Shown: positions 7,595 to 44,390 of the stretch, one piece after another | Layout of the letters: each line of letters opens with the position of its first letter | Numbering within the stretch: the stretch's first letter is position 1 | NCBI GenBank assembly: GCA_000004985.1 | Contig: GG738896.1 | DNA: 64,000 nucleotides | From: Naegleria gruberi | Taxonomy: Eukaryota | Strand: one strand, 5' to 3' | Made by a program: the position numbers and the translations under genes | The notes under the pieces: generated by a model | The model's database searches: none | Told to the model about the DNA's origin: nothing | The model's input: the letters and a program-made list of their open reading frames with translations, nothing else

Positions 7595-7640
7595 CTTATC
7601 CTTTTTCATCAAGGAATTAAGTATATTTTACTACATTTTA

Positions 7641-11475: not shown

Positions 11476-11999
11476 ATTTCTTTCTCCTATTAATTGTTGT
11501 TATTGTTGTTGAATATTCATCATTAAATATATATTATAATTCGTTTTTGGTTGTTGTTATTATTGTTCAAAAGCAATTCAATGAATATGATAAAACGTTT
11601 TTTCATAATTTCATCATCATTCCATTGTTTTTAAATTTGTTAAACGCATCGGATGGTAATATAAATGCATGAAATGCAAATTAATAATAGAGAGTTGAGA
11701 GAGAACGTACTCTTTTGCTGAGATTGGGCAGAATTTCCTTTGGCCATTGTTGTTGTTATTGATCTAAAAGAACGTTAAAATATTTTTTTAATAAAATTTT
11801 TTGTTGGAGAAATTTTCATAGTTTTTTTCTTTCTTTTCAAAATTTCCTTTTTTAAAACCTTAACGTTCATTTACCTCAATGAATGGTTGAGTATTTTGAA
11901 CAGAATGGGATGTAATTGAAATGATACATATCATTTGAAGTAATTAATTGGTTCTATTGAATAATTTTCATTTTGAAATTTTGAATATTTCAGTGATAT

Positions 12000-12598: not shown

Positions 12599-12883
12599 TG
12601 AAGTGTAATAATTATTGGATGAATTTTTATGTTTTGTTATTTTTTTGAGTTTGAATTTTATTTTTAGTTTTATCGTGAACTTTTTGAAACCACATTCAAG
12701 TTCAGAGTTGAAAAATAGTCAAAACTGAGTTTGAATGAATTGTAATTATTATTTAATGGTATTTTGTTAAAGCTTTAAATATTATTACACATGGTGGATT
12801 GTTCTAGTGTGAAAATAGTACACGTGTCGTAGAACTCTGAGTTCTGCTGTTGTTACAATTTCCAGATTTCTTCCTCTTTCTGT

Positions 12884-12897
12884 GAAGGCGCCAAAAT
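12884..12897. promoter_or_regulatory. E2F-like GC element GAAGGCGCCAAAAT, 43 bp upstream of the ATG at 12935
   Basis: GGCGCCAAAA is a half-site of the palindromic TTTGGCGCCAAA motif. It occurs 4 times in this window, always just upstream of a gene start. Confidence 0.4.
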
Positions 12898-12934
12898 TAA
12901 ATGAATTAAAAAACAAATAATTAAAAAAAATAGG

Positions 12935-15508
12935 ATGATGTTTACAAGACAAACTGCCAGAAAATCAACTGGTGGAAAGGCACCTCGCAAACAAGTTGGT
13001 TCAAAATCAGCTTTAGGATTAAATTCTTCTAATGCGAGAAAATATCAAATTAATATTAGCGAGTTGAAGGCTAAACATCAACAGCAACTTTCTGATCAGA
13101 ATAATTATAATTTGAATGATGACGCTGATTTGAAGAAATTTATTGATGATCAATATGAAAATTGTGATGATTTGGTTAAAAAGTGGATTCACGATGATTT
13201 GGTCAATCAAAAAGAGGAGATTCAACAATCGGATAGTGATGTAGAGCTTGATACAAGATTGTTGAAAGAATTGGATGAAAATACCAAGTTTGAAATTTTG
13301 CAATTCATTCCAACATTTTCACCAAATGTTGCCAATCAGTCCTTGACTGAAGAAAGAAATATTGAAATGAATCTCGATACTGAATTGATTAGATTTCACA
13401 AAATGAGATTAATTAACAAGAGTTTCAACAAGATTATGATGAAGAAAATTCTCACTCTCAAACATATTACCTTGAAAACTGCTACCAACACTTTAAATTA
13501 TATTAGTTTGCTCTCTATTGCTCAGAAGGCATACAAACAAGCAATGATGATGAACTCGAACCATGATCTAAATATTGATAATGTTTTATTATATAACCCT
13601 TATTCATCAGTAGAAATAGTTGACAACAACCAAAGTTTTGGTTTCAATAACTTTGGTGGTTTTTCAACAGGTCTCAATAGCTTTGGTGGTTTCTCAACAG
13701 GATTTGGTACTTTCGGTACTACAGCAAGCAGTATACTTCAAAACACCAATGAAATCCCATCCGATTCGAGAGAACTAATTTCTGAAGATTCTGAGGATGA
13801 GCTTATTGCAAAATTGTATTTAAAGAGAGAGGACAAGAAAAATCCCCAAAAAGTAGATATTGATTACATGCGTGAAGAGGTTTATTTATACACACATGCA
13901 TCACATACCACTTCTCAAAATCAAAGTAGTTCATATCCACCTGTTATTATGACAGTCAATGAAACTATTGAAACTTTAACTTTGGTAATGGAAGATCAAT
14001 ATCTAGCCAAAGATATTGTAGGGTTTTTTTCTAAATTGAAAAGACTTAATATTTTCATGAATAATGCAACTTTTTATTACGGAGAAGTATTCAACTTGGC
14101 TTCAGAATCTCTAGAGGAAGTTTTAGTTTGTGGTGCTGGTTTGTTAGAACTTCTTATCAACCAACCATATTTGCTAAGCTCTTTTTCTGGGGCTTCTTGT
14201 CCAAAGATGACATCAGTTACATTTTCTCCTCTACTTCCAAATATTTATGCACCAGAAAATATTCTTGATACCTACTTTTCTCAACTACAAGTCACTAATC
14301 CAACCATCCACAAGCTTAATATTTATGATAAGATTGGTAGAAATGAATCCGCATTTATCAAATCTGAAGTATTTACCACTACCAATCCTGTTCAAAGAGA
14401 GCTAAATGTTTACTGTGTTCAATACAAGTCACTTGTAAACATTGATATCTTGGAGGAACTCTATGATATATTTGGAGACCGTTTCGTGAAAACCGTAATG
14501 CCATTCATGATACTCGGATATAATTGCCCTGTAACATTGGAACATGACCAATCACTTTGGAAATCTCATTTTGTGGAACACATGAAAAAGTTCAAAGATA
14601 CTGCAAATTACTTGTTCAAGAAGAGGAAATTTCCTGTTTCAAACGTGTTGCTTTCATTTGACATTATGACAAATAATGTTTTAGAACAGAACATCAAGGA
14701 CAGCAAATTACAATACCTCATATACCTATGTAACCAGTATCAAAATTCTAAACTTTTAAGCTATCTACCTGAAAACAAACAAACTCTATCAACAATTATT
14801 GCCTCAATTTATAGAGGATGGAATTTCACAAAATATACAAATGATCTCTTGGAATTCTTTGTTAGAGCCTTTTTTCACAGAGGAGTTTCTGCCATGTTAC
14901 ATAACTTTAAGTATGATGAAAAATTTATTGTATCTCAAATTGAGTATTTGGCTACTAGTTACACGATTAGTTCTACGATTAGTTCTAGGGCCGTTATTAC
15001 TGAGATAATTATCCACCTCTTCAGAAATAACTCAAAGGTTCTCTACTCTCTTCTTGCAAAACAGGTGGAAGTTTCTGATAATAACACTACATTTACAATT
15101 CCATTTATTGCCTTCCTCTTCGGAAAGGCAGATTGCTATTTAATTGCTAAACTATTTAATGAAATGGACATGGAAACATTCAATTCTTTAGGTCAAAACA
15201 ATAGAGGCGACAACATTCTCCACATTTATGTTTACTTTCAACAAGAATTTAATTACCTCATCTTTTATTCCATACTAAACAAGAATCCAAACTTGATTAA
15301 CATGGTCAATCACAAATTGCAAACTCCGCTTCATTACTTGATGACACTAAATGACAAGAGATCACCTCTTTTACTTCCAGAAATCAATCAACTTCTTAAA
15401 CGTAATAATATTTTGTTAGATATGAATGTTACCGATTATATGGAACAAACTCCTATGAGTATTCTTAAATCAGAAGAATATGAACATGAAGATATCATGT
15501 TTGAATAA
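12935..15508 (+). CDS. Large protein with a histone H3 tail-like N-terminus, FG-type repeats and C-terminal ankyrin repeats
   Basis: 857-aa single-exon ORF. Residues 3-21, TRQTARKSTGGKAPRKQ, match the H3 tail ARTKQTARKSTGGKAPRKQ at 17 of 18 positions. FGFNNFGGFSTGLNSFGGFSTGFGTFG are nucleoporin-like FG repeats. The C-terminus holds ankyrin repeats (GDNILHIY..., QTPLHYLM..., QTPMSIL). Confidence 0.7.
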   Translation: MMFTRQTARKSTGGKAPRKQVGSKSALGLNSSNARKYQINISELKAKHQQQLSDQNNYNLNDDADLKKFIDDQYENCDDLVKKWIHDDLVNQKEEIQQSDSDVELDTRLLKELDENTKFEILQFIPTFSPNVANQSLTEERNIEMNLDTELIRFHKMRLINKSFNKIMMKKILTLKHITLKTATNTLNYISLLSIAQKAYKQAMMMNSNHDLNIDNVLLYNPYSSVEIVDNNQSFGFNNFGGFSTGLNSFGGFSTGFGTFGTTASSILQNTNEIPSDSRELISEDSEDELIAKLYLKREDKKNPQKVDIDYMREEVYLYTHASHTTSQNQSSSYPPVIMTVNETIETLTLVMEDQYLAKDIVGFFSKLKRLNIFMNNATFYYGEVFNLASESLEEVLVCGAGLLELLINQPYLLSSFSGASCPKMTSVTFSPLLPNIYAPENILDTYFSQLQVTNPTIHKLNIYDKIGRNESAFIKSEVFTTTNPVQRELNVYCVQYKSLVNIDILEELYDIFGDRFVKTVMPFMILGYNCPVTLEHDQSLWKSHFVEHMKKFKDTANYLFKKRKFPVSNVLLSFDIMTNNVLEQNIKDSKLQYLIYLCNQYQNSKLLSYLPENKQTLSTIIASIYRGWNFTKYTNDLLEFFVRAFFHRGVSAMLHNFKYDEKFIVSQIEYLATSYTISSTISSRAVITEIIIHLFRNNSKVLYSLLAKQVEVSDNNTTFTIPFIAFLFGKADCYLIAKLFNEMDMETFNSLGQNNRGDNILHIYVYFQQEFNYLIFYSILNKNPNLINMVNHKLQTPLHYLMTLNDKRSPLLLPEINQLLKRNNILLDMNVTDYMEQTPMSILKSEEYEHEDIMFE

Positions 15509-15617
15509 TTGAAACTTAATGATAGCAAGCATTTCTTCCAAGCTAATAAAATTTTTACAGTAAGGATTTCATGTATTTAATTGTTTGTTGGGCAACCAGA
15601 ATTAATCGATTAATTTT

Positions 15618-15784
15618 ACACTTAAAGGAATCCGCAAACCAATAATGAACCAAAATGAAGTGCATTAGCCGGGAGTCGAACCCGGGTCACCAGCTTGGAA
15701 GGCTGGTATGATACCGTTACACTACTAATGCTTTCTTGGTTAATTCATTCCTTAATGTTCACGATTAAGCACGATATCCCATTC
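15618..15784. repeat. Left arm of an inverted repeat carrying tRNA-Gly(TCC) plus conserved 5' and 3' flanks (partner at 17211..17377)
   Basis: The reverse complement of 15732-15784 (gaatgggatatcgtgcttaatcgtgaacattaaggaatgaattaaccaagaaa) aligns at about 85-90% with 17211-17263 (gaatgagatattgtgcttaaccgtgaatattaaggaatgaaataagcaagaaa). The 3' flanks also align (atgcacttcattttggttcattattggtttgcggattcc versus atgcatttccttttgattcttggtttgcagattccc). Confidence 0.7.
15661..15731 (-). tRNA. tRNA-Gly (anticodon TCC), copy A
   Basis: The reverse complement GCATTAGTAGTGTAACGGTATCATACCAGCCTTCCAAGCTGGTGACCCGGGTTCGACTCCCGGCTAATGCA is 71 nt. It matches eukaryotic tRNA-Gly-TCC (GCCTTCCAAGC anticodon arm, GGGTTCGA T-loop). 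Confidence 0.9.
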
Positions 15785-15912
15785 TGTTTATTCCTTTTTA
15801 ATCAATTTCTGGAACTTTCATTCTTAATTCGAATTGAACATAACGGTACTATAGCATTAGGCCTACTATTCTTGAATTCTCCTGGAGGGAATTTACATCC
15901 CATTTAAAAACA

Positions 15913-17165
15913 ATGAAAGCAAAAAAATTTCAAATCAGTAAAAAAAAAATGGAGCTATTGGAAGAATCATGCTTGCTCTCAGTGATTAATCTTCCAAAAG
16001 AGATTTGGCTCTATCAAATATGTGAATATTTAGATATTCTTGATATGATTTTTTCGCTGGGGAGAGTTTGCAAAGCATTTCGATATGAATTGGCAAACGA
16101 ATATCTTAAAAAATTCCCAAAAACAAAAAAGAAGGATTCGAATGATCAAGTCAGTTCGATAGATAGCTTTTCAATGAGAAGAGTGAAATATATTATCAGA
16201 GATGAATTACTGAAATTTATTGTAAAGTTTGAAAAATCTCTGACGAATGAAGGAATTTTCGAAAAGAAGGACACGAGCCATGTATCAGAACAGTCCAATG
16301 CTCAACAAAATGATCCAAAATCAACAAATGGTGGTCCCACAATAGAAAAAGAACGTTTAATGGAATTATTCCAATCAAGAATGGAAATATTCGACTTTTA
16401 CTTTTCACATTTCTATAAGAAATTACCAAGTGACGCTAGTGAATCAGCTATCAAGCAAACTTCCATTGCTTCTTCCCTATTTAAATCTGAAAATCAATTA
16501 GTTGAATCCTCATCAGCAAGAAACACTGAAATGAAAAAGATTTTGATTATCGGCAATGGTGGAGGTAAGTTTTCATTGTTAAATATTTCTCTAAATATTT
16601 AAAGTTGGAAAAACAACATTTTGCAGATCAATGCAGGATTTACCACTAAACGATAACCGAAATCTACCAACTATTGGTTGTGAAATCAACTCTTACCGAT
16701 TGAAAATTGCCGGTTTGGAAGCAAATATTAATTTATGGGATACAGGTATGTTCCACACTTTTTAATTGAGATTTTTATTAAAATCAAACAGTTGGTCAGG
16801 AAAAGTTTGGTTTTCTTAGAGATACCCTTTATGTGAATACTTCAGTGTGCATCATTTGTTTTGATCTTACCAGTAGATATTCCTACAAATCTATTCTGAA
16901 TTGGTTCAGGGATATCAAAAGAGTGGAACCTGAATGTGAAGTGATATTTGTCGGAACGAAACTAGATCTAACCGACAATCTGAAAGTAACACCCAAGCAA
17001 ATTACTTTTCCAATTAACAAGTATTGTCCATATATTGGATTGAGTAGTCTTCAACAGATTAATAATAGAGCAGTGTTGTGGTATGTTGCTTTTATGAATC
17101 TGTTTGTTTCCCATTTGAAAGGTATTCATGAAACTCTCATTTGTGATAAAGAAACAATAAATTGA
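15913..17165 (+). CDS. Chimeric F-box / Ras-superfamily small GTPase protein, 3 exons (15913..16564, 16605..16745, 16792..17165); 3' end uncertain
   Basis: The N-terminus LPKEIWLYQICEYLDILDMIFSLGRVCKAFRY fits an F-box. Exon 1 ends KILIIGNGG. The GTAAGT donor at 16565 and the 40-nt intron continue VGKTTFCRSMQ...NINLWDT, completing the P-loop GNGGVGKT. A second 46-nt intron gives VGQEKFGFLRD...SVCIICFDLTSRYSY...VIFVGTKLDL (G3, G4 motifs). The C-terminal tail after NKYCPY is unusual and may hide another intron. Confidence 0.65.
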
Positions 17166-17210
17166 TTTAGACTTACCTTAGTGTGGAACATTAAGGTTTT
17201 ATAATAAATA

Positions 17211-17377
17211 GAATGAGATATTGTGCTTAACCGTGAATATTAAGGAATGAAATAAGCAAGAAAGCATTAGTAGTGTAACGGTATCATACCAGCCTTCCAA
17301 GCTGGTGACCCGGGTTCGACTCCCGGCTAATGCATTTCCTTTTGATTCTTGGTTTGCAGATTCCCTTATTATTGTTA
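17211..17377. repeat. Right arm of the inverted tRNA-Gly unit repeat (partner at 15618..15784)
   Basis: See the left-arm entry. The two arms face each other across the F-box-GTPase gene at 15913..17165. Confidence 0.7.
17264..17334 (+). tRNA. tRNA-Gly (anticodon TCC), copy B
   Basis: The 71-nt sequence is identical to the other three copies. Confidence 0.9.
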
Positions 17378-17960
17378 CTGTGGTACTTAAGCAAATGAAA
17401 ATTTTCTCGCGAAAAAATATATATTAAAATACTTCAATACTCTTCTTTGACTCCTTTTGCATATTGGATTATGAACTTTGATTACCATTATTGGTGTTGA
17501 TGTCTAATGGTGAGCTAGTTGAGGGATTGTCTCTTTCAAAATGTGATATTGAGCATATTCATCCTTAATAGAGAGATACCAAGCCGAATCAATTGGCCGT
17601 TCACACACTTGTAAGCATTATTAGACCGTTAGTAGTACATGTACTTGATAAACATGGTAACTAATCGATTGGATTGTTAGTTAAACGAAACTGCTCACAA
17701 CCCATCAAAATATTCGAAAGGTGAAACAAACATCATTTCTGAAATATAGCACGTTTCTTTCGGCGATTTCACATGCATTATTTTGTGAGAACTTTCTATT
17801 TAAGTGCAACATCTTTTTAAATGGAAAGTGATGCCCGAGATGAAATCTCTGAAAAAATAGGTTACTTTCCAATAATTGAAATTTGTAAACGAAAGCACGA
17901 ACAATAACTTTCCACCTGAACCACACAAGAATCTCTTAAAAAAAACAATAACACCCAATC

Positions 17961-19062
17961 ATGAACTATCCTAAAGCTTTAGTTGTATTTCTGATATCTT
18001 TCGCTATCCTCAACGTTGGTATCTTTGCCATCACTGTTTCTCAAGATTTTACCAATGCATTTGATGCAGCTGTCCAAGCAATGATTACTGACAGCGAATG
18101 GAATAAATTCTATTCTGACACGATGTATTTTACAGTGCCAACATGTACAAGTGCAACTGTCAAATGGCCAACTAAGAATCCATTCATTGGTAGAAGTGGT
18201 TTAAACATGTGTTTCGAAACTGGAACTTTATCTCCGTGGTTAGAAACCAAGACGAAAATTGCTCAAATGGTTGTTCAAAAGATTAATTCACACTATGGAA
18301 CAAGTTATAATGCAAATATTTTGAGATTTAATACAAGTGCATTGGGATTCTTTGATACGATGAAAAATGCTGTGAATAATGGAGATTGTAAGTTTCGAAT
18401 ATATTTTTTAAGTTTCGAATATTTTGAAATAATTAATGTTTGATAATTTCGAATAGGTGATATGATAACTGCTAATATTCTTGTTACTGCCGAAAGAAGT
18501 TCATCCATTCATTATCAATGTCCATTCGGATCTGGTTCAAATGGTTGGATCAGAACTAAAAGAGATCCACAACTTTCCATTACTGATATTTCTCAATTGA
18601 ACAAGACTGGAATCATGGTTGGAGGTAAGTTATTGATCATTCATGAAATTTCTCATTCATTATTCAACAAATCTATTCGAAACACAGCTTATGAAGGAAC
18701 TGCTTTTGCAACTTATGTGAAAACTAATCTTCCAGCTGCAACTTTTGTGCCATATTCTGGTATTAACTTGCAATATGACGCTGTTTTGGATGGATCAGTT
18801 CATGCAATTATTGGAGATGGTAAGTTTAATTTAGTTTATTATTGGTATTCGAAACCTTTCAGCTATTCAATATTACAATTGGGCCAATGTTCAAATGTCA
18901 GGAAAATGTAATTGCACTGTTAAAACTTATGGAAATACATTCGGTATGGCCACTTTCACCAATGTGAATATTACAACAAGCGGAGTTGACCAAATCGGCG
19001 GAGGAAATGTTTGGACCTCCTTTTTGGTATTAATAATAGTTTCCATTTTAGTCATGTTTTAA
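17961..19062 (+). CDS. Secreted protein with a bacterial-type periplasmic solute-binding (SBP_bac_3-like) fold, 4 exons (17961..18387, 18457..18624, 18688..18819, 18902..19062)
   Basis: N-terminal signal peptide MNYPKALVVFLISFAILNVGIFA. After splicing out three GTAAGT introns (69, 63 and 82 nt) the protein reads ...DMITANILVTAERSS...GIMVG AYEGTAFATYVKTNLPAATFVPYSGINLQYDAVLDGSVHAIIGDG. This resembles amino-acid-binding SBPs. A hydrophobic C-terminus (SFLVLIIVSILVMF) suggests a GPI or TM anchor. Confidence 0.6.
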
Positions 19063-19160
19063 ATAATAATATACTAATAATTTTTGTCAAGCAACAGTAT
19101 TGTTGACTTCAATAAATCCTAAATATTAAATTAAAAAGAGAAATCTTTAAAAATCTCAAA

Positions 19161-19175
19161 TTTTGGCGCCAAAAG
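19161..19175. promoter_or_regulatory. Palindromic E2F-like element TTTTGGCGCCAAAAG, 11-25 bp upstream of the ATG at 19186
   Basis: A perfect 14-bp palindrome TTTTGGCGCCAAAA lies within an AT-rich intergenic region. Confidence 0.45.
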
Positions 19176-19185
19176 TCAAAAAAAA

Positions 19186-20760
19186 ATGTGGAATGCGAAT
19201 TCTCCTGCGCCATGCTCATCAGGATCATCGGTTGATCAGCAGCAATACAGTCCACTTCCCATCGCCTCTATTCAACAATTTACATCAACAGTAACTCATC
19301 ACGAATTTGTAATGCACTCATCAGAATTATTTGTCGAATTATTTTGAATTCCTGATCGTAAAAAGAAGAATAATTCTGATTATTTGGATGCATATTTCAA
19401 GTCTACAAAGTCTTTTGATGCAAACAAGTATCAATCACAGATTAATCCACAAATTGTACGTCAAGTCCAAATATCAAGTAATGGTATCTCAGATCATTGT
19501 ACAAATGTGCGTTCGTGGTTTATTGAAACCATCATGATGAGAATGGGTATTTTCCTACCTGAGAACATTTCGTTGGTGAAGAGAATTGGAGAGGGAGCTT
19601 ATGGCAGCGTGTATAGAATTGGTAAAGATAAAGTGTTGAAGATTGCTAAAGATGGTGAAGCCATCAAGAAGTTTGATCATCCATTATTGTTGAGTATTGA
19701 GAGGCTTTTTTGGTATGAAGCTGAGAAACTCTTGTTGATTGTTTCTCCATACTATGAATTGGGACATTTGAGAGGTCAATTCACATTAGGTCAATATTGG
19801 TCAATTCTTTGTAATTTGACAAATGCTCTCAAGTATTTACATTCCCAACAAGTTGTTCATAGAGATATCAAGCCAGCAAACATACTTGTAGAAAAAAAGG
19901 ACAAATTTGAAGTGAAAGTTGTTTTAGCTGATTTTGGATTGGCGAAATCGTTCGATTCTTGCAGTGCAGGAAGTGTAGGAACGACCTACTTTGTAGCTCC
20001 AGAATTAATGAAAGGTTATGATGGAGAACATAGTGCTAGAAGAAGAGTTGCCAATGAGAAGAGTGACATTTTTTCTCTTGGAAAGACTATTAGCGTTCTA
20101 ATTTTGAATGACAAACCTGAAGATTTGGAATTTAAGAAGGGGAATTCACTCACCGAATTGCTTAATCGTATGATGAAGTACAAGCCAGAGAATAGACCTT
20201 CGACTGATGAAATTATTTCAATATGTGAAATGGAGATTTCAAAGCTTTCAGAGACTGATTACAATGCAATTTTCAAATTATCCGACAATGATATTGAAAT
20301 ATTTGATGAAATGAGCTTTTACACTGAAAGTAGTTTGAGTGATGGTTTGTTGAAAATGTTAATAAGCGGAGAAAGTTCTCAAAGTCAATCTGCTGTTAAA
20401 CATTCATACACGTTTGATCTTCACGATGACGGTGTTGTAAATGCCAAGAAAATAATTCACATCAAGTGCACACCAGAGGCAAGATTGGCCATCGAATCAA
20501 TCTATCTCAGAATTTACAACACCAAATTCAATACAGGACTCATTGATGTAACCAATTGCTTGTCCAAATCAGTTAGAGAAATATCCAATGATAATGAAAA
20601 GAAATATGCCATCTCTGGTTCACAAAAACAATATCTCATTCCTGCCAAGTCGAAATATCAAAATGAAAAAGGAAAGGACACTATTGAATTGTATATTAAT
20701 AATAGGGATGAACATGTGGCTTCAGCCAATTATGTCGCCAAGAATAATAAAAATAATTAA
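19186..20760 (+). CDS. Ser/Thr protein kinase; the core exon 19366..20760 is certain and the proposed 5' exon 19186..19308 is tentative
   Basis: The kinase core is LVKRIGEGAYGSVYRIGKDKVLKIAK (GxGxxG and VAIK-like), HRDIKPANILV, DFGLAKS, GTTYFVAPE. The TTG-initiated ORF at 19384 has no upstream ATG. An upstream ORF from 19186 (MWNANSPAPCSS...THHEF) ends at a GTAATG donor at 19309. A 57-nt intron to the acceptor AG at 19364-19365 (or 19367-19368) keeps the frame. Confidence 0.6.
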
Positions 20761-20984
20761 TCGAATCCTAAGCTAATAAGAATCAAAAGGAAGTGCATTA
20801 GCCGGGAGTCGAACCCGGGTCACCAGCTTGGAAGGCTGGTATGATACCGTTACACTACTAATGCTTTCTTGCTTATTTATTTTCAACCGTAATGTTCCGG
20901 ATTAAGGGATGCAATATTTTCAATAATTATTTATTTCAATAATCTATTATTCAATTAAAAGTGGAATGACATGTCAGAGAACTT
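20702..20984. repeat. 283-bp direct repeat, copy 1. It spans the kinase C-terminal codons, tRNA-Gly(TCC) and the intergenic region through the 3' end of the RCC1 gene
   Basis: About 97% identical to 22902..23183, with a uniform 2200-bp offset. Confidence 0.85.
20794..20864 (-). tRNA. tRNA-Gly (anticodon TCC), copy C
   Basis: Identical 71-nt sequence on the minus strand. Confidence 0.9.
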
Positions 20985-21034
20985 ATTTATGAACATGAAT
21001 AATAATTCAATATTATTAATTATTACTAAAAAAA

Positions 21035-22714
21035 ATGAGCAAACGAAATAGACACAATTTTCCATTAATTCCGGAGAAGGAAATATTCAATAATAACACT
21101 CAAGCAAAAAAGAAAAAACTTGTACTCCATGAACAACGAGAAGAAATATTTTCAGATGATATTTGTTTTGAAATAATTTCCATGATTGATGATTCGTGGT
21201 TTATTTTAAATAATTGTACTTTAATTTCAAAACAATTCTTTAATGTGATCCGAGAACGTTCTAAACTTGTTATTCAATTTAAAAAAAAATTTACAGAGAA
21301 AAGAATTGAATTATTCATGAAAAGTCAATTCATGAATAGTATTGCTAATGTTAAATTTTCCGTTTACTCCTTAGACAATGCCAAATTCATAAGTGAAATG
21401 AAACAATTGACATCACTTGGTATTGCTGAAAATCGAATTGGTGATGAAGGAGTTAAATTCATAAGTGAAATGAAACAATTAACTTTACTTGATATATGTT
21501 GCAATGAAATTGGTGTTGAAGGAGCCACGTCAATAAGTGAAATGAAGCAATTAACATCACTTAATATTTCTGGCAATCGAATTGGTGATGAAGGAGCTAA
21601 ACTCATCAGTGAAATGAAGCAATTAACATTACTTAATATTGCTGACAACCGAATTTGTGTAGAAGGTGCAAAATCAATAAGTGAAATGAAACAGTTAACA
21701 TCACTTAGTATTTCTGACAACGAAATTGGTGTAGTAGGAGCAAAATTAATAAGTGAAATGAATCAATTAACATTACTTAATATTTCTAACAACGAAATTG
21801 GTGATGAAGGAGCCAAATTCATCAGTGAAATGAAACAATTGATATCGCTTGATATTTCTAACAATCTAATTGATATAGAAGGTGCAAAATCAATAAGTGA
21901 AATGAAACAGTTAACATCACTTGAGATTTATTACAATGAAATTGGTGATGAAGGAGTCAAATTCATAAGTAAAATGGAACAGTTAACATCGCTTGATATT
22001 TCTGGAAATCAAATTGGTGTAGGAGGAGCTAAATCAATAAGTGAGATGAAACAATTGACATTTCTTCAAATATTTTCCAATCGAATTGGTGATGAGGGAG
22101 CAAATTCAATAAGTGAAATGAAGCAATTAACATCACTTAATATTTATTACAATCAAATTGGTGATGAAGGAGTCAAATTCATAAGTGAAATGGAACAATT
22201 AACATCACTTGATATTGGTGGAAATCAAATTGGTGTAGGAGGAGCTAAATCAATAAGTGAGATGAAACAATTGACATTTCTTCAAATATTTTCCAATCGA
22301 ATTGGTGATGAGGGAGTCAAATTCATAAGTGAAATGAAGCAATTAACATCACTTAATATTTCTGGCAATCGAATTGGTGATGAAGGAGCCAAGTCAATAA
22401 GTGAAATGAAGCAATTAACATTACTTTACATTTCTAGCAACGAAATTGGTGATGAAGGAGTCAAATTCATAAGTGAAATGAAACAATTAACTTTACTTCA
22501 AATATATTCCAATCGAATTGGTGATGAGGGAGTCAAATCAATAAGTGAAATGAAGCAATTAACATCACTTAATATTTCTGGCAATCGAATTGGTGATGAA
22601 GGAGTCAAGTCAATAAGTGAAATGAAGCAATTAACATCACTTAATATTTCTAACAATCGAATTGGTGATGAAGGAGTCAAATTATTAACATCACTTAATA
22701 TTGTCTTATTTTAA
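21035..22714 (+). CDS. Leucine-rich-repeat protein (RNI-like, 24-aa repeats), intronless
   Basis: 559-aa ORF from the ATG at 21035. From about aa 120 onward there are roughly 18 tandem units of consensus ISEMKQLTSLNISGNRIGDEGAKS (72-bp DNA period). The N-terminus may contain an F-box-like stretch (ICFEIISMIDDSWFILNNCTLISKQFFNVI). Confidence 0.8.
   Translation: MSKRNRHNFPLIPEKEIFNNNTQAKKKKLVLHEQREEIFSDDICFEIISMIDDSWFILNNCTLISKQFFNVIRERSKLVIQFKKKFTEKRIELFMKSQFMNSIANVKFSVYSLDNAKFISEMKQLTSLGIAENRIGDEGVKFISEMKQLTLLDICCNEIGVEGATSISEMKQLTSLNISGNRIGDEGAKLISEMKQLTLLNIADNRICVEGAKSISEMKQLTSLSISDNEIGVVGAKLISEMNQLTLLNISNNEIGDEGAKFISEMKQLISLDISNNLIDIEGAKSISEMKQLTSLEIYYNEIGDEGVKFISKMEQLTSLDISGNQIGVGGAKSISEMKQLTFLQIFSNRIGDEGANSISEMKQLTSLNIYYNQIGDEGVKFISEMEQLTSLDIGGNQIGVGGAKSISEMKQLTFLQIFSNRIGDEGVKFISEMKQLTSLNISGNRIGDEGAKSISEMKQLTLLYISSNEIGDEGVKFISEMKQLTLLQIYSNRIGDEGVKSISEMKQLTSLNISGNRIGDEGVKSISEMKQLTSLNISNNRIGDEGVKLLTSLNIVLF
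21390..22690 (+). repeat. Intragenic 72-bp tandem repeat array (LRR units)
   Basis: The gtgaaatgaaacaattaacatcacttaatatttctggcaatcgaattggtgatgaaggagc... unit is repeated about 18 times with point variation. It produces spurious antisense ORFs at 21364..21720 and 22498..22680. Confidence 0.8.
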
Positions 22715-22901
22715 TTGGGTGTTTATTGAAACGCCTTAATCAATGATATTAATGAAGAAGGAGTTAAATATTAGAGAGACATGAAACAATTAATTGCTCT
22801 TGTTTAGTTCGTGTGATGGATCTTGACATGAACTTGATTGTTGACTTAATTTGTCTCTCATGGAATCAATGAAGTTACTAACTTTTTGTCATATATAGAC
22901 G

Positions 22902-23183
22902 ATAGGGATGAACATGTGGCTTCAGCCAATTATGTCGCCAAGAATAATAAAAATAATTAATCGAATCCTAAGCTAATAAGAATCAAAAGGAAGTGCATTA
23001 GCCGGGAGTCGAACCCGGGTCACCAGCTTGGAAGGCTGGTATGATACCGTTACACTACTAATGCTTTCTTGCTTATTTATTTTCAACCTTAATGTTCCGG
23101 ATTAAGGGATGCAATATTTTTCTTAAAATAATTATTTATTTCAATAATCTCAATTAAAAGTGGAATGACATGTCAGAGAACTT
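22902..23183. repeat. 283-bp direct repeat, copy 2 (includes a pseudo-fragment of the kinase C-terminus and tRNA-Gly copy D)
   Basis: 22903-22960 repeats the last 19 codons plus stop of the kinase gene (RDEHVASANYVAKNNKNN*). The sequence through 23183 matches 20702..20984. Confidence 0.85.
22994..23064 (-). tRNA. tRNA-Gly (anticodon TCC), copy D
   Basis: Identical 71-nt sequence on the minus strand. Confidence 0.9.
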
Positions 23184-27848: not shown

Positions 27849-30800
27849 ATGATGAAAGGATATCTAACCACCCTTGTTATCTTTCTCTATTGTTGCTACT
27901 GTTTTCTCTCTTCAATAGCGTTGGTACAGGTGGGAAATTGTGCATCAATTTCACAGCAAACATTTTCATCTCTACTCAACTCGACTGAAACTCCGATTCT
28001 CTCCTTGACAATGTATCTCGGCGGAGCTAAATCTCCAACCAGTGATTCTACCAGTTGGGGTAATTTATGTGGAGTTGCAATGGAAAACCCTTGCAAAAGT
28101 TTTGGTCAATTGATGATCAGTTTTAATTCGACTTTGTTTAATTTGCATGAAAATTTCACAAATTTACAAGTTGAAAGAAATGTTTATTTGAAGATTTATT
28201 TGTTATCTAGTGATGGATCGGTTGTGTGCTCGAATAATCAGGTGGATTTGGGGATGGTTTCATCGATGAAATATTTTGTGGAAATTACAAAAATAGACGA
28301 AACTAAACCCTTGTTGATTTGTTCGAATACAGTTAATACTTACCTGAGTATTCCAATTCCACCTCAGATCAACGTCATTTACTTTCATTCTTTGAAATTT
28401 CAATCACTCTTGATCAAATATGACAATTCCAAATCAAGACCACTTGACATTTTGATTGAGGATTGTGAAATGGTGAATGTTTCAATTGAAGAATATAGAA
28501 AATCAATTCGAGATGATTGGGCAAAATATTTTATCATGGAGAATTCAAAATTTATTTCCAATATCTTTCCTCTCAAAATTCTCTATACGAATCAAGTCAT
28601 TATCGTAAAATCTCAATTTAATTACATGCTTGGAGTTCAATTTGGACACTCAGTAACTATACAAGAATCGGTAATTCTTGGACACCCTTCAATTATCTCG
28701 AATTTACAGACCTTTCGGATAACTAATTCATCCCTAGAGTCAGTTGGCATTCAAAGTGTGGAAAATGTGGATTTCATTGGTGTGTTTTTCTTTGAATCCA
28801 AATTGTATCAGACATCAATTTCAATTTCTCAGATAACTGGTTTCTCTGGCAACAAGTGGACTTTCACGGATTGCATTTCAAAACGAGTGGAAAATTTTGC
28901 ATCTATTCGCTCAGTGGAAAGTGTTCTAATTGAGAATATTTTATTGGAAAGTTCAGGTTCGATTAGTAATGGAATGGTGCCTTTTATTTATTTAGATAGT
29001 TGCAATACAGTGACCATGCTTAGGAATATCATTAAGAAAGGGGTTTCCTTCATTCAGATTAATTATTATTATACTGTGCAAATAGTTTCGTCTCAATTTT
29101 ATAATAATGCTCCGTTGCTTATTGATAGATCTTCACCAATTGAAACATCCCAAAGTAGAATTTCAATCATTAATTCAAAATTTTCTGGATCTGTTTCTAG
29201 ATATGGACCAGTCCAAATTAATTATTGCACTAATTTAAATATTTATGGTTGTGTATTTAATGATAATATAGCAACAGTGTCTGGAGGTGCTTTGTTCATT
29301 GGAAATTTAGTACATTCTTCACAAATAGCTGAAAGTTATTTTATTAATAATCAAGTGGCATGTGAAGGAATTCCAAATATGGAAAAATGTTCTGGTGGAG
29401 CAATTTCATATACCAATAGTGAAAACTCGAATGGAATTTTAATTGAAAAATGTAATTTTAGAAATAATGTTGCATCTAGAGGTGGAATTTTATATTTTGG
29501 AAAGAATAATGCCTATATTAGGGTTACTAATTCGACTATGGAAAACAATCAAGCCAAGTTGACTGGAAGCATTGCTTATTTTAATTACAAGGAAGAAAGG
29601 TATTTCCAAATGATTGATGTTAATAGGAAGAATAATTTTTCACCAACAAGCATTGATTTGGCTGAGAAGATTTCGTATAATTCAGCTTCAATTATGGGAA
29701 TTTCCAATGAGAATGATGTATATGAATTGTCCATTGGGAAAAAGTATTCACTTAACCTTACTGGTACGGATGGATATGGAAATCAAACTAATCAAGTTAT
29801 TGATCAATTATCAATAGAATCATCTGATTCTCGTTTGACAATGACATTAGATCAGCAACTAGATTCGATTACTTTCCAACTATTCTTCCTTGATTCGGCT
29901 CAGAATTTCTCATTGCTGGGTTTCAAAAATACTTTTAAAATTACAACACCTAACAACCCTGTCAATCTTTCCATTATAATCAAATCATGTGATACAGGTT
30001 TTGAAATAACAAGTACAGTTACCGAAAAAACTGGAATTTACTTGTACGATTGTCGACCTATTCCTGTATTCCCTATTGGAATATTATTGGGTTTAGTAAT
30101 TGGATGTTCATTATTTGTTTTTATTTTAGGAGTTTCTATTGGATTGGCAAGTTATTGTTTGTGGAATGTTGTTAAAAAGTTGAGAAAACTCAGACAAAAG
30201 GAAATTGCAGAGAAACAAATGGAAGACGCTTTATTGAATAAGAGAATAATATTCAACATGACAGAGGATGAGGAGGAATACTATGAGAAACGACCAGAAG
30301 CCGAATCTGGTAGTAAGAATTCAAAAGCTTCCTATCAGAAACTTCCTGATTCTGAACTAAGTTCTTCCTTAATGAATCAAAACAAGACTAAACATAGATA
30401 CAGCATGTCCTCTTCATTCATCATCCCAATAGAAGATATCACAATTATCAAAAAGATTGGTGAAGGAGGTGCTGCAAATGTTTATTACGGAACTTGGACG
30501 AATATTAAGGTTGCAATTAAATCTCTCAAATCTGAAATTAACGAAGATTTCGAACAAAATTTCGAAAGAGAAGCTTCCATTTTGAGTAATATTAGACATC
30601 CAAATGTTTTAACGTTTTATGGTGTTTGCTTAACAGATAAAAGTCGATACATTGTAACTGAATATATGGAGAAGGGAACATTGGAAAAATTTATATACGA
30701 AAGTAGAAATAGAGGAATGAATATTGAGCTTCTCAAGACTATTCTGACATTATTGTGTGGAATTTCTAATGGAATGCAATATCTTCATGCACTTAAACCT

Positions 30801-31435
30801 GCTGTCATTCACAGAGATTTGAAATCGAGTAATATTTTACTTGATGAGAGGAATAATCCAAAAGTTTCGGATTTTGGATTGGTGAAAGTTTTAGGAACGA
30901 ACACAATGCAAACTCAAATGACGAAAGCCATTGGAACCATCTTTTTCATGGTAAGTATTGTAAAATTTAATTCGAATCTCACTAATTTTCTCAAAGGCAC
31001 CAGTAAGTATTTCTATATTTCGATTGACTTGAATCAAAATTTATTGAAATTTGACAGGAATCTTTCATGACTGATCATCCAATTGATAATAAGGAAGCAG
31101 CAACCAAACTAGATGTCTACAGCTTTTCAATCTTAATGTGGGAATTATTCTTTAGGAAAAGTCCCTACCATCACGTCAAGAATACTTTCAAAATTCCACA
31201 ACTAGTTTGCGATGGTGAAAGACCTCAAATACCCTTCTCTGTTGGAAATCAAGAAGAAATTAGGGAATGGTTATTGGAAAGTAATGGAGAATCTAATTCT
31301 GATGTGGTGATACAGTGTATTGATCGATATTTTTCACTTGTTGTAAAGTGTTGGAATCACAATCCATTGGAAAGACCTTTATTTTCGAATATTAGACAAG
31401 AATTGGAAGAAATATTGTCAAGCATTAACCATTAA
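27849..31435 (+). CDS. Receptor-like TKL protein kinase: signal peptide, beta-helix-repeat ectodomain, single TM, cytoplasmic kinase; 3 exons (27849..30950, 30997..31002, 31058..31435)
   Basis: Signal peptide TLVIFLYCCYCFLSSIALVQ. The ectodomain carries repeated N..A..GGA.Y/F units (CVFNDNIATVSGGALFIG, KCSGGAISY, NNVASRGGILYFG, NQAKLTGSIAYF), typical of parallel beta-helix or Pmp-type repeats. The TM segment is IGILLGLVIGCSLFVFILGVSIGLASYCLW. The kinase shows IKKIGEGGAANVYYGTW..VAIK, HRDLKSSNILLD, DFGLVKV. The GT..MAPE motif is restored only by splicing a 6-nt micro-exon GCACCA (Ala-Pro) between GTAAGT introns of 46 and 55 nt. Confidence 0.8.
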
Positions 31436-32849: not shown

Positions 32850-34416
32850 ATGCAAAACAGTACAGAACAAGAACTTACCCAAACCAAGATCAAATTCACG
32901 CGATGGCTTTCTGAAATGCAATTGGGAAGTGATGTTTTACCAGGCATTGATAGCATGTTCTCCAATTCGATTGGCAATATTTTGAAAAAGTGTAGAGGAA
33001 TTAGATACATGTGTGAAAAGGACATTGAGGATTGTGCGGATCAGTTAAAATTGGCTCTCAAACTTGAAGAAGGAAGACAATTGGAAATTGTTGACGAAAT
33101 TAAAAAGAGAATTCACAAAATTAAGGAATTATTAAGGGATGAAGGAGTAAATTCTGTGGAGATTGTGAAAACAATTGAACAATTAAAGACTATTATTAAT
33201 AATGTTCCGTTAGAAAGTTTGGGAAATTTCCAATTGAATCCAAAGGAAAACTATCAAGAAAAAATTGCAGAACTTTCTTCCAATTTCTTCAAATTGAAAA
33301 GCAATGAAAGTAGTGAATCACAAGTACAAGAAACTGTTTCAGTTCAAGAGATTGTGCCAGAAGAAACTACTCAATTAATTTTAAATACTCCACTCCCATG
33401 TAAACCATTCAGTTTTAAAGAATGTTTGGTGAAGAGAATTGAAAAGGATGCGAATAGCAATCCAATAAGAAAAGGAGTTGGATTTGCCTTCTCGTATAAA
33501 CATAGGCTGTCCATATGTGGTAATGGTAACAAACTCCTCATTTATCATTTAGACACACTGTAAGTTTATCAAATTCCATTATACTAAACTGAACGAAAGT
33601 GAATTTATATGTTATGCACCATTTCCCACTTCCCCAACTGATTTGGAAATCATAAACAACTATGATGGTTTAGGAAATGATGGTTTACTGTTATCCTTTC
33701 CAAGTAAATTAACTAAATTCCAATTAGAACTCTACAATCTCCCTAATTTGGTTAAAATCAAAAAAGTGGTTCCTGACAATGAGGTCAAACCAGTTTGGGG
33801 CTATTCCACCCCCAATGAACACAGTGATATATATGGAGTATGTGTAAAACACGGCACCACACAAAATAACAATAACAATGGAAGAGGACATTTAATTTAC
33901 TTTACAAAAAAAACAGGATTTGAAAAGGGAAAGCATAGTATTGTAATAATTGACTTGAAAGGAAGTGTTATTTGTGAATTTAAACATGGAGCAGCTCATG
34001 GACTTGCTTTGGTTGATGATTGTTTGATTGCAACAGATTCAGATTATAGAATAATTACAGTTTTCCAAAATCAAGGAAATGGTCAATTAGAAAATTATGT
34101 CAATGTGAGCTCAATGAAAAGATCTGTTTCAAGCCCCATATGTTTCGATCCAATAAGCAAGTCTATCTTTATTTCAGATATTTTGAAATCGAATACTGAA
34201 AGTGTTGTCTCTGTATTCAAGTTGGAGAAGGGAAATTTAGTTTTTTCCAAACAATTGAAAACACCCGATGAATCAGGAAGTTATCGTAAAAACGAAAAAG
34301 AGTTTACAATTCACAGATTTTTTGGAATGGATTTTGATTCTAGTAATGGAAGGTTATGGATGTTTGAAACTGCTCATTTCCATAATAATCAGGGAAGTAT
34401 TATCATTTTGAGTTGA
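32850..34416 (+). CDS. Coiled-coil plus NHL-repeat beta-propeller protein, 2 exons (32850..33559, 33600..34416)
   Basis: The GTAAGT donor is at 33560 (phase 2) and the acceptor AG at 33598-33599, giving a 40-nt intron that restores the frame (...HLDT-L-EFICYAPF...). The C-terminal half has NHL repeats (GHLIYFTKKTG, IVIIDLKGSVI, GLALVDDCLIATDSDYRIITVF, IFISDILKSN..VVSVF). Confidence 0.65.
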
Positions 34417-36043: not shown

Positions 36044-36989
36044 ATGTATGAAAAATACGTTTGGGGAGGATATCGTATGAACCTAAGTTTCAAGGAAGCA
36101 TTCTTATCAATATTCCAGATCAATAATGAAACTGTTAACAATTGGACTGCAATACTGTCGGCTTTGGTATTCTTCTACTTTACTATAGACGTCATCTTCT
36201 TCTGGGAACCAACTTTGATTGGAGAAACAAAGAATGGTTATTCTTCATACTTTAATCATGTTGTGAGTGAAAACTTTTTGGAAAAGTCCATGTTTGTGGT
36301 TTATTGTGTATCATCAATTATAACATTTGGTGCATCTTTATTTTACCATTGGTTCAGTTGCATGTCTGAGAGTGCTTTCCATACCTTGTTGAGAATTGAC
36401 ATTAGTTCCATTGCATTATTGATTGGTGGTAGTTGTAAGTTTCAATAATTCTTATTATGGAATATCTCTAACATTATTTTGTAGACTATCCTCCATTATA
36501 TTATGCATTCTATTGTACACAATCTGTTGGAGTTTTCTACATTTCCACAATTACAATCTTGTGTTTGAGTTGTGTTGCAATGTTCATCATTCCAAGATTT
36601 TCCAGAGAAGATTATAGACAATTTAGAGTTCGAGTTTTTGGATTTACTGCACTTTATGGTTTATGTCCACTAGTTCATATCATTTATCTTTATGGATTTG
36701 ATAATGACGCCCTTAATAATAGACTGTTAGGTATCATGTACATGTATTTGTGCTATGCTGCTGGTGTCTTTTTCTATAGTACCAAATTGCCAGAAAGATT
36801 ATGGCCTGGCAAGTTTGACATTTTCTGTCATAGCCATCAATTTTGGCACATTTTTGTCTTTTCGGTATGTAGTAGTTCTATATTTTTCTTCTTATTAACA
36901 ATTAATAGGCCACATTGCTTCACTTTTACAATTGTGTCTACATGAAGACAGAGTCTGGAGTTTGTTTTGCTCCTCTTCCAAATACTTAA
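36044..36989 (+). CDS. PAQR / adiponectin-receptor / hemolysin-III family 7-TM protein, at least 3 exons (36044..36434, 36485..36864, 36909..36989)
   Basis: YVWGGYR, NETVNNWTAIL (ETxNIWTHL-like), HSHQFWHIFVF and the C-terminal ATLLHFYN are PAQR hallmarks. GTAAGT and GTATGT donors at 36435 and 36865 join to AG acceptors at 36483-36484 and 36907-36908. Confidence 0.75.
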
Positions 36990-38132: not shown

Positions 38133-38559
38133 GATTCTATACACTTTATTGTTGTATTCTTCTTCTTCATTGTAAATATTTAAAAGATAATTCAGGATAA
38201 TCATACTTTTCCAGAATATCGACACCATCTGATGTATTATACAAAGTATTGAATGGGAATTCACCGAATCTAAAACTTCCACTAAGAATTTTCAGTCTGA
38301 ACAATAGAACCTAAATATTCCATTTGAAGCTATTTGATTGGATTTTACAATTCCAAACAAACATCAAATGGATTAATCGATTTTCCCGCCTCAATCGGAA
38401 TTATTTACAACTATTAATGGCCATTGAGAGGATTCAATACTACACTTTAAACTTTCAGTTGAGTAAGAACTTGTTGTATTATGAAGAGTGACTTGCTTTC
38501 TCTCTTCACTGACCCAATCTCACTACAACTTCTGACACCAGACAGCTGACATCTACGGC

Positions 38560-38567
38560 TATAAAAA
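38560..38567 (+). promoter_or_regulatory. TATA box (TATAAAAA) about 45 bp upstream of the ATG at 38612
   Basis: ggcTATAAAAAcctggcaatgcgcg precedes the start codon of the secreted K-rich protein. Confidence 0.35.
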
Positions 38568-38611
38568 CCTGGCAATGCGCGAATCATATCCAAACATCAA
38601 CAAGAAAAAAA

Positions 38612-40123
38612 ATGAACAAAATCTTCTCACTCTGCTTACTCGCATTGTTCTGTGCAGTTCTTTTCTGCGCTTCCACTTCTGAAGCCTTGAGCGTCATCAA
38701 AACCGTTCAAGCAAAGGCTGTCCCTGCCAATAAACCAAAACAACAAAAAGGAAAGAAATTTGGTAAACTCTTGAAGAAGGGTGCTTCCAAGAAGCAAATT
38801 AAGAAGGCTGCTAAGAAAGCTATCAAGAAATCAAAGAAGGAATTGAAGAAGGCTACCAAGAAGGTTAAGAAGGCTGCTAAGAAGAATCTTGCCAAGTGGA
38901 GAGCTTTGTGGGCTAAGTATAAGAGAATTGCTCAACGTGCTTTGAGAAAGTTTAGAAGAACTCAAAGGTAAGTGTCATGTCATTCGTGTTGACAATTAAC
39001 GAATAATTTTATTTGTTATCCTCTCTCTCGCTTGATGACTAAATTACGGAAAATATTCGAATGTTTATTATCATCATCATTTTGATTAACATACAACAAC
39101 AATTTGTGGACAATTTGTGTGATCATCATGTTGGAATGTCATGACTTTACAATATATTCTAAACGTATGATTAGAAAGTTGAAGAGAGCTCGTAGATCTG
39201 CTTCCAGAAAGACTGTTAGAAAGTTGAAGAAACAAGCCAAGAAGGCCAAGAAGACTGCCAAGAAGGCCCAAAAGAAGGTCAAGAAGGCTTCCAGAAAGGT
39301 TAAGAAGGCTAAGAAGCAAGTCAAGAAGGCTGCTAAGAAAGCTGCTAGAAAGCTCCAAAAGAAGGCTGCTAGAAAACTCAAGTTGAGCAAGACTTCTATC
39401 AAGAAACTCAATGCTACTGTTAAGAAGTTGTTAAAGTTGAAGAAGAAGTTGGGTAAGAAGTTCTCCAGAAAGTCAATTCCTGCCAAGATTAAATTGTTAG
39501 CTGCCAAGTTGAGAATTATTAAGAAGTGTAAGATTTCAAAGAAGTCTGCTGCTAAGAAGGCAAAGAAGGTTGCTGGTAAGAAGACTGCCAAGAAGGCCAA
39601 GAAGCAAGTTAAGAAGGCAAAGAAGGCTGAAAAGAAGGCTAAGAAGCTCGTCAAGCAAGCTAAGAAGGCTGCTAAGAGTGGAAACAAGAAGGCTGCCAAG
39701 AAGATTGCCAAGAAGGCTATTGTCAATGCTAAGAAGTCAATTGAAGTTGCCAAGAAGTCAGTTACTGTTGCTAAGGTTGCTGTTGAAAAGGCCAAGCAAG
39801 TTTTCACTACTATTGTCAACAAGCTTAAGGAATTAGTCAAGAAGGCTCAAATCACCGTTCAAACTGGTAAGACTACTGAAATCAAGAAGATTCAAAAGAA
39901 GGTTGAAGTTGTTAAGAAGACTGTCAAGAAGGCCAAGAAGAATGTCAAGAAGGCTCAAAAGAAGGCTAGAAAGGTTGTTAAGAAGGCTAAGAAGGTCATC
40001 AAGAAGGCCAAGAAGGTTCAAAAGCAAGCCAAGAGAGTTCTCAAGAATAAGGTCACTAAGAAGGGTATCAATAGACTTGTTAACAAGTTGATTAGACTCC
40101 AAAAGTGTTCCAAGAAGAACTAA
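38612..40123 (+). CDS. Secreted lysine/alanine-rich polycationic protein, 2 exons (38612..38967, 39175..40123), about 450 aa
   Basis: Signal peptide MNKIFSLCLLALFCAVLFCASTSEA. The rest is KKAxKK-type low complexity. The exon-1 frame ends at a GTAAGT donor at 38968 (phase 2). The acceptor AG at 39173-39174 continues the same KKA repeat frame of the 39104 ORF (…RTQ-R-KLKRARRSASRK…). Confidence 0.6.
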
Positions 40124-43168: not shown

Positions 43169-44390
43169 ATGCTAAGCATGAGTCCACCACGATTGATTCC
43201 GAACATAATTAATCTTGATGATGATGATGATGAAGATTTGATGCAATTTTCATCATCGTCTCCTTTGCAAGACGATACTAACATCATCATCGCAAAATAT
43301 TTGGAAAATACATCAGATAAGGAAAATACTTCTGATAATGAATCGACTCGCACCACTCGTACAAGTGAAACGTTGCACTCTTCTTGGGAGAATGACACAC
43401 TATCCGAGTTATCGATGAATTCAATCTTAACAAAGCAAACAGAAGCATCCGATAATGAAGATGAAGACCTTGAGGAAGATGAAATGGAGACTAATGGATC
43501 GGAAGAAGAAACTGAAGAAGAAGAAGTAATTCAGAAAAAGAGAAGGCATGGGGAAGTTGTGAGTAAATCTAAAAGGATCAAGACAGAAGGAGAAACTAAT
43601 GAACACCACATTCCTTCACACCTACTTCTCACCTTAGGCCAAACACTTTTCATTCCATATGCAGGCGATTCTGTTTTGATTGGAAACTTATTAGACTCAA
43701 TGGTTGGCTTATCTGTTGAAGAAATGCTCGAACAAGATATGGTAAAGATGGTTCTCTCTGTAATGCAACCAAAGGAAGCTGCTGAGGAAGAATGGAATCA
43801 AAGATTGAATGAGGATAAATCAACGCAATGGACAGCTTTATTAGATACCTATCCAAAGTAAGTATTGGAATATCTCTCTCTATTAATTAACACGAATCAG
43901 ATTGAAAGAATACAGCATGTTCAATTTAAAGTATGTTCATGTGAAGGAATGCCTTGAGAACGATTTTGAATTAAGGAACAAATTTGGATATGTATACACT
44001 ATTGAAGATGAAGATGACAATATTATTTTGTGGATTGAATGTGAAAATGGAGACAAGTATGTGGATAAAGTCAGTCTTAGATCACATTTAAAGAAAAAGC
44101 GTTTGAGATCTGACAAACCACATTACAAAACAAACTGTTCTACATTTACCCAGCTACTTCTTAAGAGTTTACCATATCAAGCTGAAAAGATAATAGCAAA
44201 TGGTTACAATGAGGTGGCATTCATAAATGTTGAGGAGGCCACTAAAAGATATGGTGCATTCATTCTTCAAGACAAATACAAGTTGGATTTCAGTAAATTG
44301 GGATTAAAGGAATACCAGGTAAAAAAGAATAGAAGTAAGAAAGCAAGTAAGGAAAAGGAAGAAAAGAAATCAGTTAGCAAAAAACCATAA
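43169..44390 (+). CDS. Acidic (Asp/Glu-rich) nuclear-type protein, 2 exons (43169..43857, 43916..44390)
   Basis: The GTAAGT donor at 43858 (phase 2) and the acceptor AG at 43914-43915 (58-nt intron) join ...LDTYP-N-MFNLKYVHVKECLEND... Runs DDDDDED and EEETEEEE are present. The C-terminal tail is K-rich. Confidence 0.55.

Follow-up and report, generated by a model that had tools for sequence, protein, structure and literature searches.

Gene anatomy at the activation segment of a receptor kinase

The window (the whole 64-kb stretch of Naegleria gruberi DNA that was analysed) was AT-rich (31-37% GC) and gene-dense, with few introns. On its plus strand lay a gene predicted to encode, after splicing, a receptor kinase of 1161 aa. 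The gene was resolved into the following features.

27849-30950, plus strand: exon 1, a single open reading frame of 1034 codons from the ATG at 27849, ending in phase 0; hydrophobic N-terminus, ectodomain, transmembrane segment, juxtamembrane region and kinase subdomains I-VIII up to ...AIGTIFFM
30951-30996, plus strand: intron 1, 46 nt; donor GTAAGTATT; acceptor AAAG (AG at 30995-30996); branch-point-like CACTAAT at 30980-30986
30997-31002, plus strand: putative micro-exon GCACCA, 6 nt; flanked by phase-0 junctions; supplies Ala-Pro to the APE motif in the activation segment
31003-31057, plus strand: intron 2, 55 nt; donor GTAAGTATT; acceptor GACAG (AG at 31056-31057); phase 0
31058-31435, plus strand: exon 3, 125 open codons with the stop TAA at 31433-31435; E of APE, subdomain IX (KLDVYSFSILMWELF) and the remainder of the C-lobe

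Exon 1 ended with GGA ACC ATC TTT TTC ATG, in phase 0 at 30950. Read straight through, its frame continued as ...AIGTIFFM VSIVKFNS... and reached a stop at 31068-31070. Exon 3 opened at 31058 with GAA TCT TTC ATG ACT GAT CAT CCA, which placed intron 2 directly before the Glu codon of APE. Because a TGA at 31052-31054 closed the exon 3 frame two codons upstream of 31058, the AG at 31056-31057 was the sole usable acceptor for this exon. The junctions predicted for the spliced mRNA read …ATCTTTTTCATG/GCACCA/GAATCTTTCATG… (slashes, here and below, mark exon boundaries). The splice coordinates and the intron lengths of 46 and 55 nt given in the original prediction all matched the sequence, as did its description of a read-through that ends in ...AIGTIFFM and then enters a stop-containing frame. 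It had further argued from the restoration of the reading frame. The spliced frame was indeed correct, but it was not diagnostic, since joining 30950 directly to 31058 was also in frame (both junctions being phase 0). As skipping of the micro-exon preserves the frame, the frame cannot decide between the models, which are told apart instead by motif, spacing and splice signals.

The identity of the gene as a receptor-like kinase, proposed earlier, was borne out by reading the translation, which revealed a hydrophobic N-terminus, an ectodomain of ~760 aa and one membrane-spanning stretch, and by Pfam, which assigned residues 864-1152 of the spliced product to a kinase domain (PF07714, E=1.6e-55; PF00069, E=3.4e-48). 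By these features the protein is predicted to be a single-pass, receptor-like kinase of the TKL/TK-like class. An exact look-up of both spliced products and of the read-through product returned no entry in a collection of 15 billion proteins. The segment coding for the ectodomain (27849-30140) gave no significant Pfam match, and its sole hit, one Chlam_PMP repeat with E=0.018, fell short of the curated cut-off. Many short repeats in this region, in which Asn, Ser and Gly abound, suggested a beta-helix-like fold.

The Ala-Pro residues and the splice signals

The catalytic motifs of exon 1 (Gly-loop GEGGAANVY, VAIKSLK, HRDLKSSN and SDFG) were followed in the spliced product by GTIFFM-AP-ESFM, which has the overall pattern G-T-x-x-F-M-A-P-E. 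The APE motif was whole only when the micro-exon was included. With all catalytic motifs intact, activity would be expected of the spliced product, and kinase function should depend on the P+1/APE segment. We compared the two spliced products on both Pfam kinase models. The PK_Tyr_Ser-Thr model (PF07714, curated cut-off 23.1) scored 195.0 bits with Ala-Pro and 183.6 without, and the Pkinase model (PF00069, curated cut-off 31.7) scored 169.2 and 157.3 bits respectively, so that the two residues brought 11.4 and 11.9 bits, about 11.5 each. A gap at the Ala or Pro column was found in none of the 260 homologues spanning the site, which were all those fetched in this analysis that do so; their residues at this site were APE (190), SPE (25), DPE (21) and PPE (8) among others.

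A query with the full-length protein was swamped by unrelated kinases, whereas the kinase domain as query brought up Naegleria relatives. The best match was an N. gruberi protein (P0037, 67% identity in the kinase domain), followed by relatives such as FDP41_009158 of N. fowleri (P0039, 43% identity). The N. gruberi relative was collinear at the N-terminus, had its GTVYYLAPETFIAEHQIENKEEATKLDIYSF opposite GTIFFMAPESFMTDHPIDNKEAATKLDVYSF of the window's protein, and carried the motif …YYLAPETF…; its GIGTVYYLAPETFIAEHQIENKEEATKLDIYSFAI aligned gaplessly to AIGTIFFMAPESFMTDHPIDNKEAATKLDVYSFSI of the spliced product, and the alignment continued through the part encoded by exon 3 with no gaps near the junction. 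The nearest solved kinases included Arabidopsis CTR1, human TNNI3K, RIPK2 and ABL1 (E 1e-33 to 1e-37), besides an EGFR construct. They belong to the same fold family by sequence, at no more than about 30% identity and with an unrelated ectodomain. APE was aligned ungapped in the two alignments printed, those with the EGFR construct and with a reconstructed Src-Abl ancestor. Together with the splice signals described below, the Pfam gain, the absence of gaps among the homologues and the alignment with the N. gruberi relative supported the original claim that the micro-exon completes the activation-segment motif.

These comparisons bear directly on the simplest competing structure, a single 107-nt intron (30951-31057) in which GCACCA would be merely intronic and the protein would read ...GTIFFM-ESFM... 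without Ala-Pro. Its junction is in frame, its donor at 30951 and acceptor at 31057 are both good, and a 123-nt intron in N. fowleri, described below, shows that such a length is feasible in the genus. However, it would impose a 2-residue deletion matched by 0 of the 260 homologues and would forfeit about 11.5 bits on both kinase models. We searched the window for introns, taking a strong donor followed by an acceptor that joined two long open frames and then assembling the products. Nine other short introns were inferred:

16565-16604, plus strand: 40 nt, GTAAGT…AAAG
33560-33599, plus strand: 40 nt, …AAAG
6651-6692, plus strand: 42 nt, GTATGT…ATAG
18820-18862, plus strand: 43 nt
43858-43900, plus strand: 43 nt, donor GTAAGTATT
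36435-36484, plus strand: 50 nt
46408-46359, minus strand: 50 nt
24568-24513, minus strand: 56 nt
18388-18456, plus strand: 69 nt

Four of the nine were confirmed by continuity of a Pfam domain across the junction (two Ras/Roc P-loops, HlyIII and RNA ligase). The P-loops were split as GNGG/VGKT and VVLI/GNAAIGKT. The introns at 16565-16604 and 6651-6692 belonged to two different Ras/Roc-type GTPase genes, each with the intron in or beside the P-loop at positions that were close and not identical; both genes encoded a long N-terminal extension, one of them with Kelch repeats and an F-box. The donor was GTAAGT in eight of the nine introns and the acceptor AAG in two. Since the nine spanned 40-69 nt, introns of 46 and 55 nt are typical of the window and one of 107 nt is not.

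Both introns flanking the micro-exon had GT-AG ends (GT at 30951 and AG at 30996; GT at 31003 and AG at 31057), and the extended donor of both was GTAAGTATT, which fits the window consensus GTAAGT. This donor sequence was expected 0.27 times per strand and was seen four times in all, two of them in this gene. Intron 1 had the branch-like CACTAAT with its A 11-12 nt before the AG, and ended in the acceptor AAG, which is rarer than YAG; the branch candidates of intron 2 were weaker (TTGAC and TTGAA), the nine other introns being too few for a branch-point model. On these signals both would be ordinary U2-type GT-AG introns. Since the first AG, at 30996, follows the branch-like sequence at 30980, use of the proximal acceptor would be expected, which again argues against removal of the 107 nt in one step, and that model also leaves an internal AG+GCNCCN+GTAAGTATT unexplained. 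We regard the single long intron as very unlikely.

Other combinations were tried and rejected. The donors at 30955, 30960 and 31007 all led into stop codons, as did retention of either intron and use of the donor at 31003 with intron 1 retained. The two-intron model and the single 107-nt intron were the only ones that kept both frame and homology.

We then asked how often random AT-rich intron sequence would hold AG-GCACCA-GT by chance. The pattern AG+GCNCCN+GT occurred once on both strands of the window (128 kb in total), at 30995. The 107-nt intron offers 31 admissible positions, each leaving two introns of at least 35 nt, and by an analytic Markov calculation the pattern was expected at these positions with a probability of 6e-5 when the model was first-order and built from the window, and of 3e-6 when it was trained on introns. 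When a GTAAGT donor was also required, the figure fell to about 2e-7. The small size of the feature, and nothing more, speaks for coincidence, against which stand these probabilities and the placement of the one occurrence exactly at the missing motif, so that chance is practically negligible as an explanation.

Of the models compared, that of two introns and a 6-nt exon was favoured by all tests that could be run. It is thus very probable that GCACCA is included in the main mRNA, with exons at 27849-30950, 30997-31002 and 31058-31435. This mRNA would be formed from three exons by removal of the 46- and 55-nt GT-AG introns. From established knowledge, two spliceosomes could not occupy both introns together when the splice sites are 6 nt apart, and for this reason their removal would be sequential, through intron definition. 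Whichever intron goes first, the second step would start from a normal substrate, namely …ATG/GTAAGT…AAAG/GCACCAGAA… if intron 2 goes first, or …ATGGCACCA/GTAAGT…CAG/GAA… if intron 1 goes first. The arrangement suggests that in a deep-branching eukaryote an exon of 6 nt is within reach of intron-defined splicing with introns of 40-55 nt.

Naegleria relatives and the history of the two introns

The gene structure of the relatives separated the two introns. In N. fowleri (contig VFQX01000067.1, L001, encoding FDP41_009158) the site read TAT ATG GCG AGA/GTAAGTGTGT…AACAG/GAA ATG GTG, with an intron of 123 nt (4270-4392) and a GTAAGT donor. In N. lovaniensis (C9374_002741, P0163, on L008) it read TAC ATG TCG AAT/GTAAGTACGA…AATAG/GAA ATG ATC, with an intron of 68 nt (1462-1529), again with a GTAAGT donor. 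A phase-0 intron before the Glu codon was therefore common to both relatives and to intron 2 of the window, and this shared position supports the two-intron model. In both relatives the two codons before the donor were joined to the upstream exon, unlike the window, in which a 46-nt GT…AG segment parts GCA CCA from …TTC ATG. No counterpart of intron 1 was found in the N. fowleri contig, the two N. lovaniensis loci (L007 and L008) or an ENA metagenome contig (L002). The motif was uninterrupted in the N. lovaniensis paralogue (L007), in the ENA contig and in several metagenomic open reading frames. A scan of JGI metagenomes gave relatives of at most 38% identity, also with an uninterrupted motif, which were uninformative on orthology. 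The original prediction had proposed that orthologues be examined for the micro-exon; it was not shared, as the N. fowleri and N. lovaniensis relatives hold only the downstream intron and the others neither.

Since the relatives carry the two codons on the upstream exon, intron 1 appears specific to the window's lineage, and their lack of a micro-exon argues for its recent origin. The simplest history has intron 2 as an old feature of the kinase family and intron 1 as a gain of the lineage to which the window belongs. A new intron inserted 6 nt upstream of the old one would have stranded the two codons as an exon. We compared the interior of intron 1 with intron 2 and found, apart from the shared 9-nt donor, a similarity no better than that of shuffled sequences (323 of 2000 shuffles reached the score). 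Neither another copy of intron 1 nor a likeness to its flanking sequence was found in the 64-kb window, and with no similarity found there an origin of intron 1 by duplication or from an introner was unsupported. The relatives in N. fowleri and N. lovaniensis tolerated ARE, ANE and SNE at the motif, which indicates that in this kinase family the presence of the two residues is constrained, their identity not strictly so.

The lineage-specific segment could also be read as a disruptive insertion in a pseudogene, with the gene either cut short at 31070 or in decay. Only the window's lineage carries the insertion, and dead copies of the family may exist, as one environmental relative carries an in-frame TGA just after SPE. 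The insertion, however, begins and ends precisely as a GT…AG intron does, is of typical length for one and contains both the full GTAAGTATT donor and a branch-like CTAAT motif; the 1034 codons of exon 1 and the 125 of exon 3 are fully open in AT-rich DNA of 31-33% GC; and the kinase domain retains its catalytic motifs and its 67% identity to the N. gruberi relative. We hold decay of the gene to be most improbable. The environmental relative with the TGA (L002; ENA ERZ4903137 k141_443234, positions 640-668) was 62% identical and read TAT ATG AGT CCA GAA without interruption. Its TGA fell at a Ser/Thr position (E-*-F-S-T-K versus E-S-F-M-T-D), and the contig ended 14 nt later. An assembly error could account for the TGA, or this relative may be a pseudogene, perhaps a retrocopy that lacks introns.

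A further alternative is that the micro-exon is alternatively spliced, so that inclusion would yield an active kinase, and skipping would leave a receptor still in frame but crippled in its activation segment, as a regulatory on/off or decoy switch. Both products are in frame, two identical GTAAGTATT donors would compete for one downstream acceptor, and low-frequency exon skipping is known in N. gruberi transcriptomes (PMC6142364). The same study, however, found intron retention rather than exon skipping to be dominant in non-animal eukaryotes (PMC6142364), short-intron, intron-defined splicing allows little regulated skipping, and in the relatives both codons are a constitutive part of the upstream exon. 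Such a switch is unlikely. We are similarly doubtful of its evolutionary extension, in which a micro-exon young by intron gain would have acquired tunable inclusion, switching the receptor between an active and a catalytically impaired kinase. If true, a unicellular excavate, far removed from animals and plants, would possess a regulated switch based on a micro-exon. A gene predictor would either truncate the receptor kinase at 31070 or drop two residues of its activation segment.

Public models of related receptor kinases also looked fragmentary. On the N. fowleri contig two adjacent annotated genes (1067-2956 and 3001-4800) lay 44 nt apart, with products of 629 aa, showing a faint Chlam_PMP hit, and a 530-aa kinase. 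The N. gruberi model P0037 (519 aa) had the first ~100 ectodomain residues joined directly to the juxtamembrane region. Ectodomain-like sequence was present upstream of the kinase in both P0037 and P0039, as in the window gene.

Known micro-exons and other features of the window

Plants have micro-exons, at most 15 nt long, that code for residues at the core of a domain and escape gene predictors (PMC8831610), and stepwise splicing by intron definition has been proposed for them in general (PMC8831610). A second source documents exons of 1-3 nt, including the 1-nt exon of Arabidopsis APC11, and models stepwise removal of the flanking introns for that exon and for the 9-nt exon of potato invertase (PMC4674806). 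Tiny exons are routinely misannotated according to both (PMC8831610, PMC4674806). The original placement of the exon at the lower limit of spliceosomal exon definition was overstated, since exons of 1-3 nt are documented (PMC4674806) and introns as short as those of the window point to intron definition. The plant micro-exons (the 9-nt VYLG exon of AP2, the 9-nt invertase exon and the 1-nt APC11 exon) resemble the window exon in being tiny and internal, encoding core domain residues and lying between ordinary GT-AG introns, and the 9-nt ones also in a length divisible by three. They differ in being ancient and land-plant-wide, whereas the putative window exon looks young and is not shared by its congeners; its host, unlike plants, is a heterolobosean amoeba with introns of 40-70 nt. 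Motif-guided searches for micro-exons, as done in plants, would improve annotation of the Naegleria kinome.

A constitutive exon of 6 nt was cited as the smallest known before 2015 (PMC4674806). It had the same length as the window micro-exon, two codons. Presumably this was the exon of chicken cardiac troponin T, which lies in a vertebrate gene with long introns, in a context of exon definition. The neural micro-exons of animals (3-27 nt) are, like the window exon, in frame, add one or a few residues that alter a surface or motif of the protein, and can be skipped without loss of frame. They are alternatively spliced and tissue-regulated, have long introns with enhancers, and depend on SRRM4 or PRP-40; SRRM4 is specific to animals. 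For the window exon, in contrast, regulation is not hinted at, and constitutive inclusion is the default expectation. The literature searched held no discussion of micro-exons in Naegleria, papers with both words covering other subjects, and the search for Naegleria intron-length statistics gave nothing usable. The micro-exon is thus of a kind already known in plants and animals, to which it adds an apparently young case in which an intron would have been gained beside an older one. It would be a clean example of this route to a micro-exon, and it brings no new principle and no change to the understanding of how micro-exons work.

A second micro-exon candidate was found in an RWP-RK gene (62911-63865, plus strand). 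Its 15-nt exon ACTAAAGAGGATATG (63194-63208, encoding TKEDM) lay between introns of 100 nt (63094-63193) and 54 nt (63209-63262), both with GTAAGT donors, and a third intron followed at 63377-63519. Pfam gave RWP-RK a score of 41.8 bits when the 15-nt exon was present, against 35.6 for a 6-nt variant and 35.8 for skipping; all three variants were in frame. The 15-nt exon is a probable micro-exon by these scores, and since it is the second in the window, very short exons may be tolerated, and may not be rare, in this genome.

The window also held LRR_6, Kelch/F-box, F-box-Ras and IP3-receptor-like genes. Seven tRNA genes lay between protein-coding genes at 3309-23064:

tRNA-Gly(TCC), four genes: at 15660, 17264, 20793 and 22993, on both strands
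tRNA-Pro(TGG), tRNA-Lys(CTT) and tRNA-Ala(AGC): within 3309-23064

On the minus strand, 53038-61385 contained an open reading frame of 2593 aa, with one of 151 aa upstream, for a channel resembling IP3 and ryanodine receptors, with RIH, MIR, Ins145_P3_rec, RIH_assoc and Ion_trans domains. At 38500-40123 (plus strand) lay a Lys/Ala-rich, low-complexity open reading frame of about 460 aa with KKAKK repeats, a start resembling a signal peptide and a possible 207-nt intron (38968-39174). An antisense open reading frame at 39139-39840 is probably an artefact of the KKAKK repeat.
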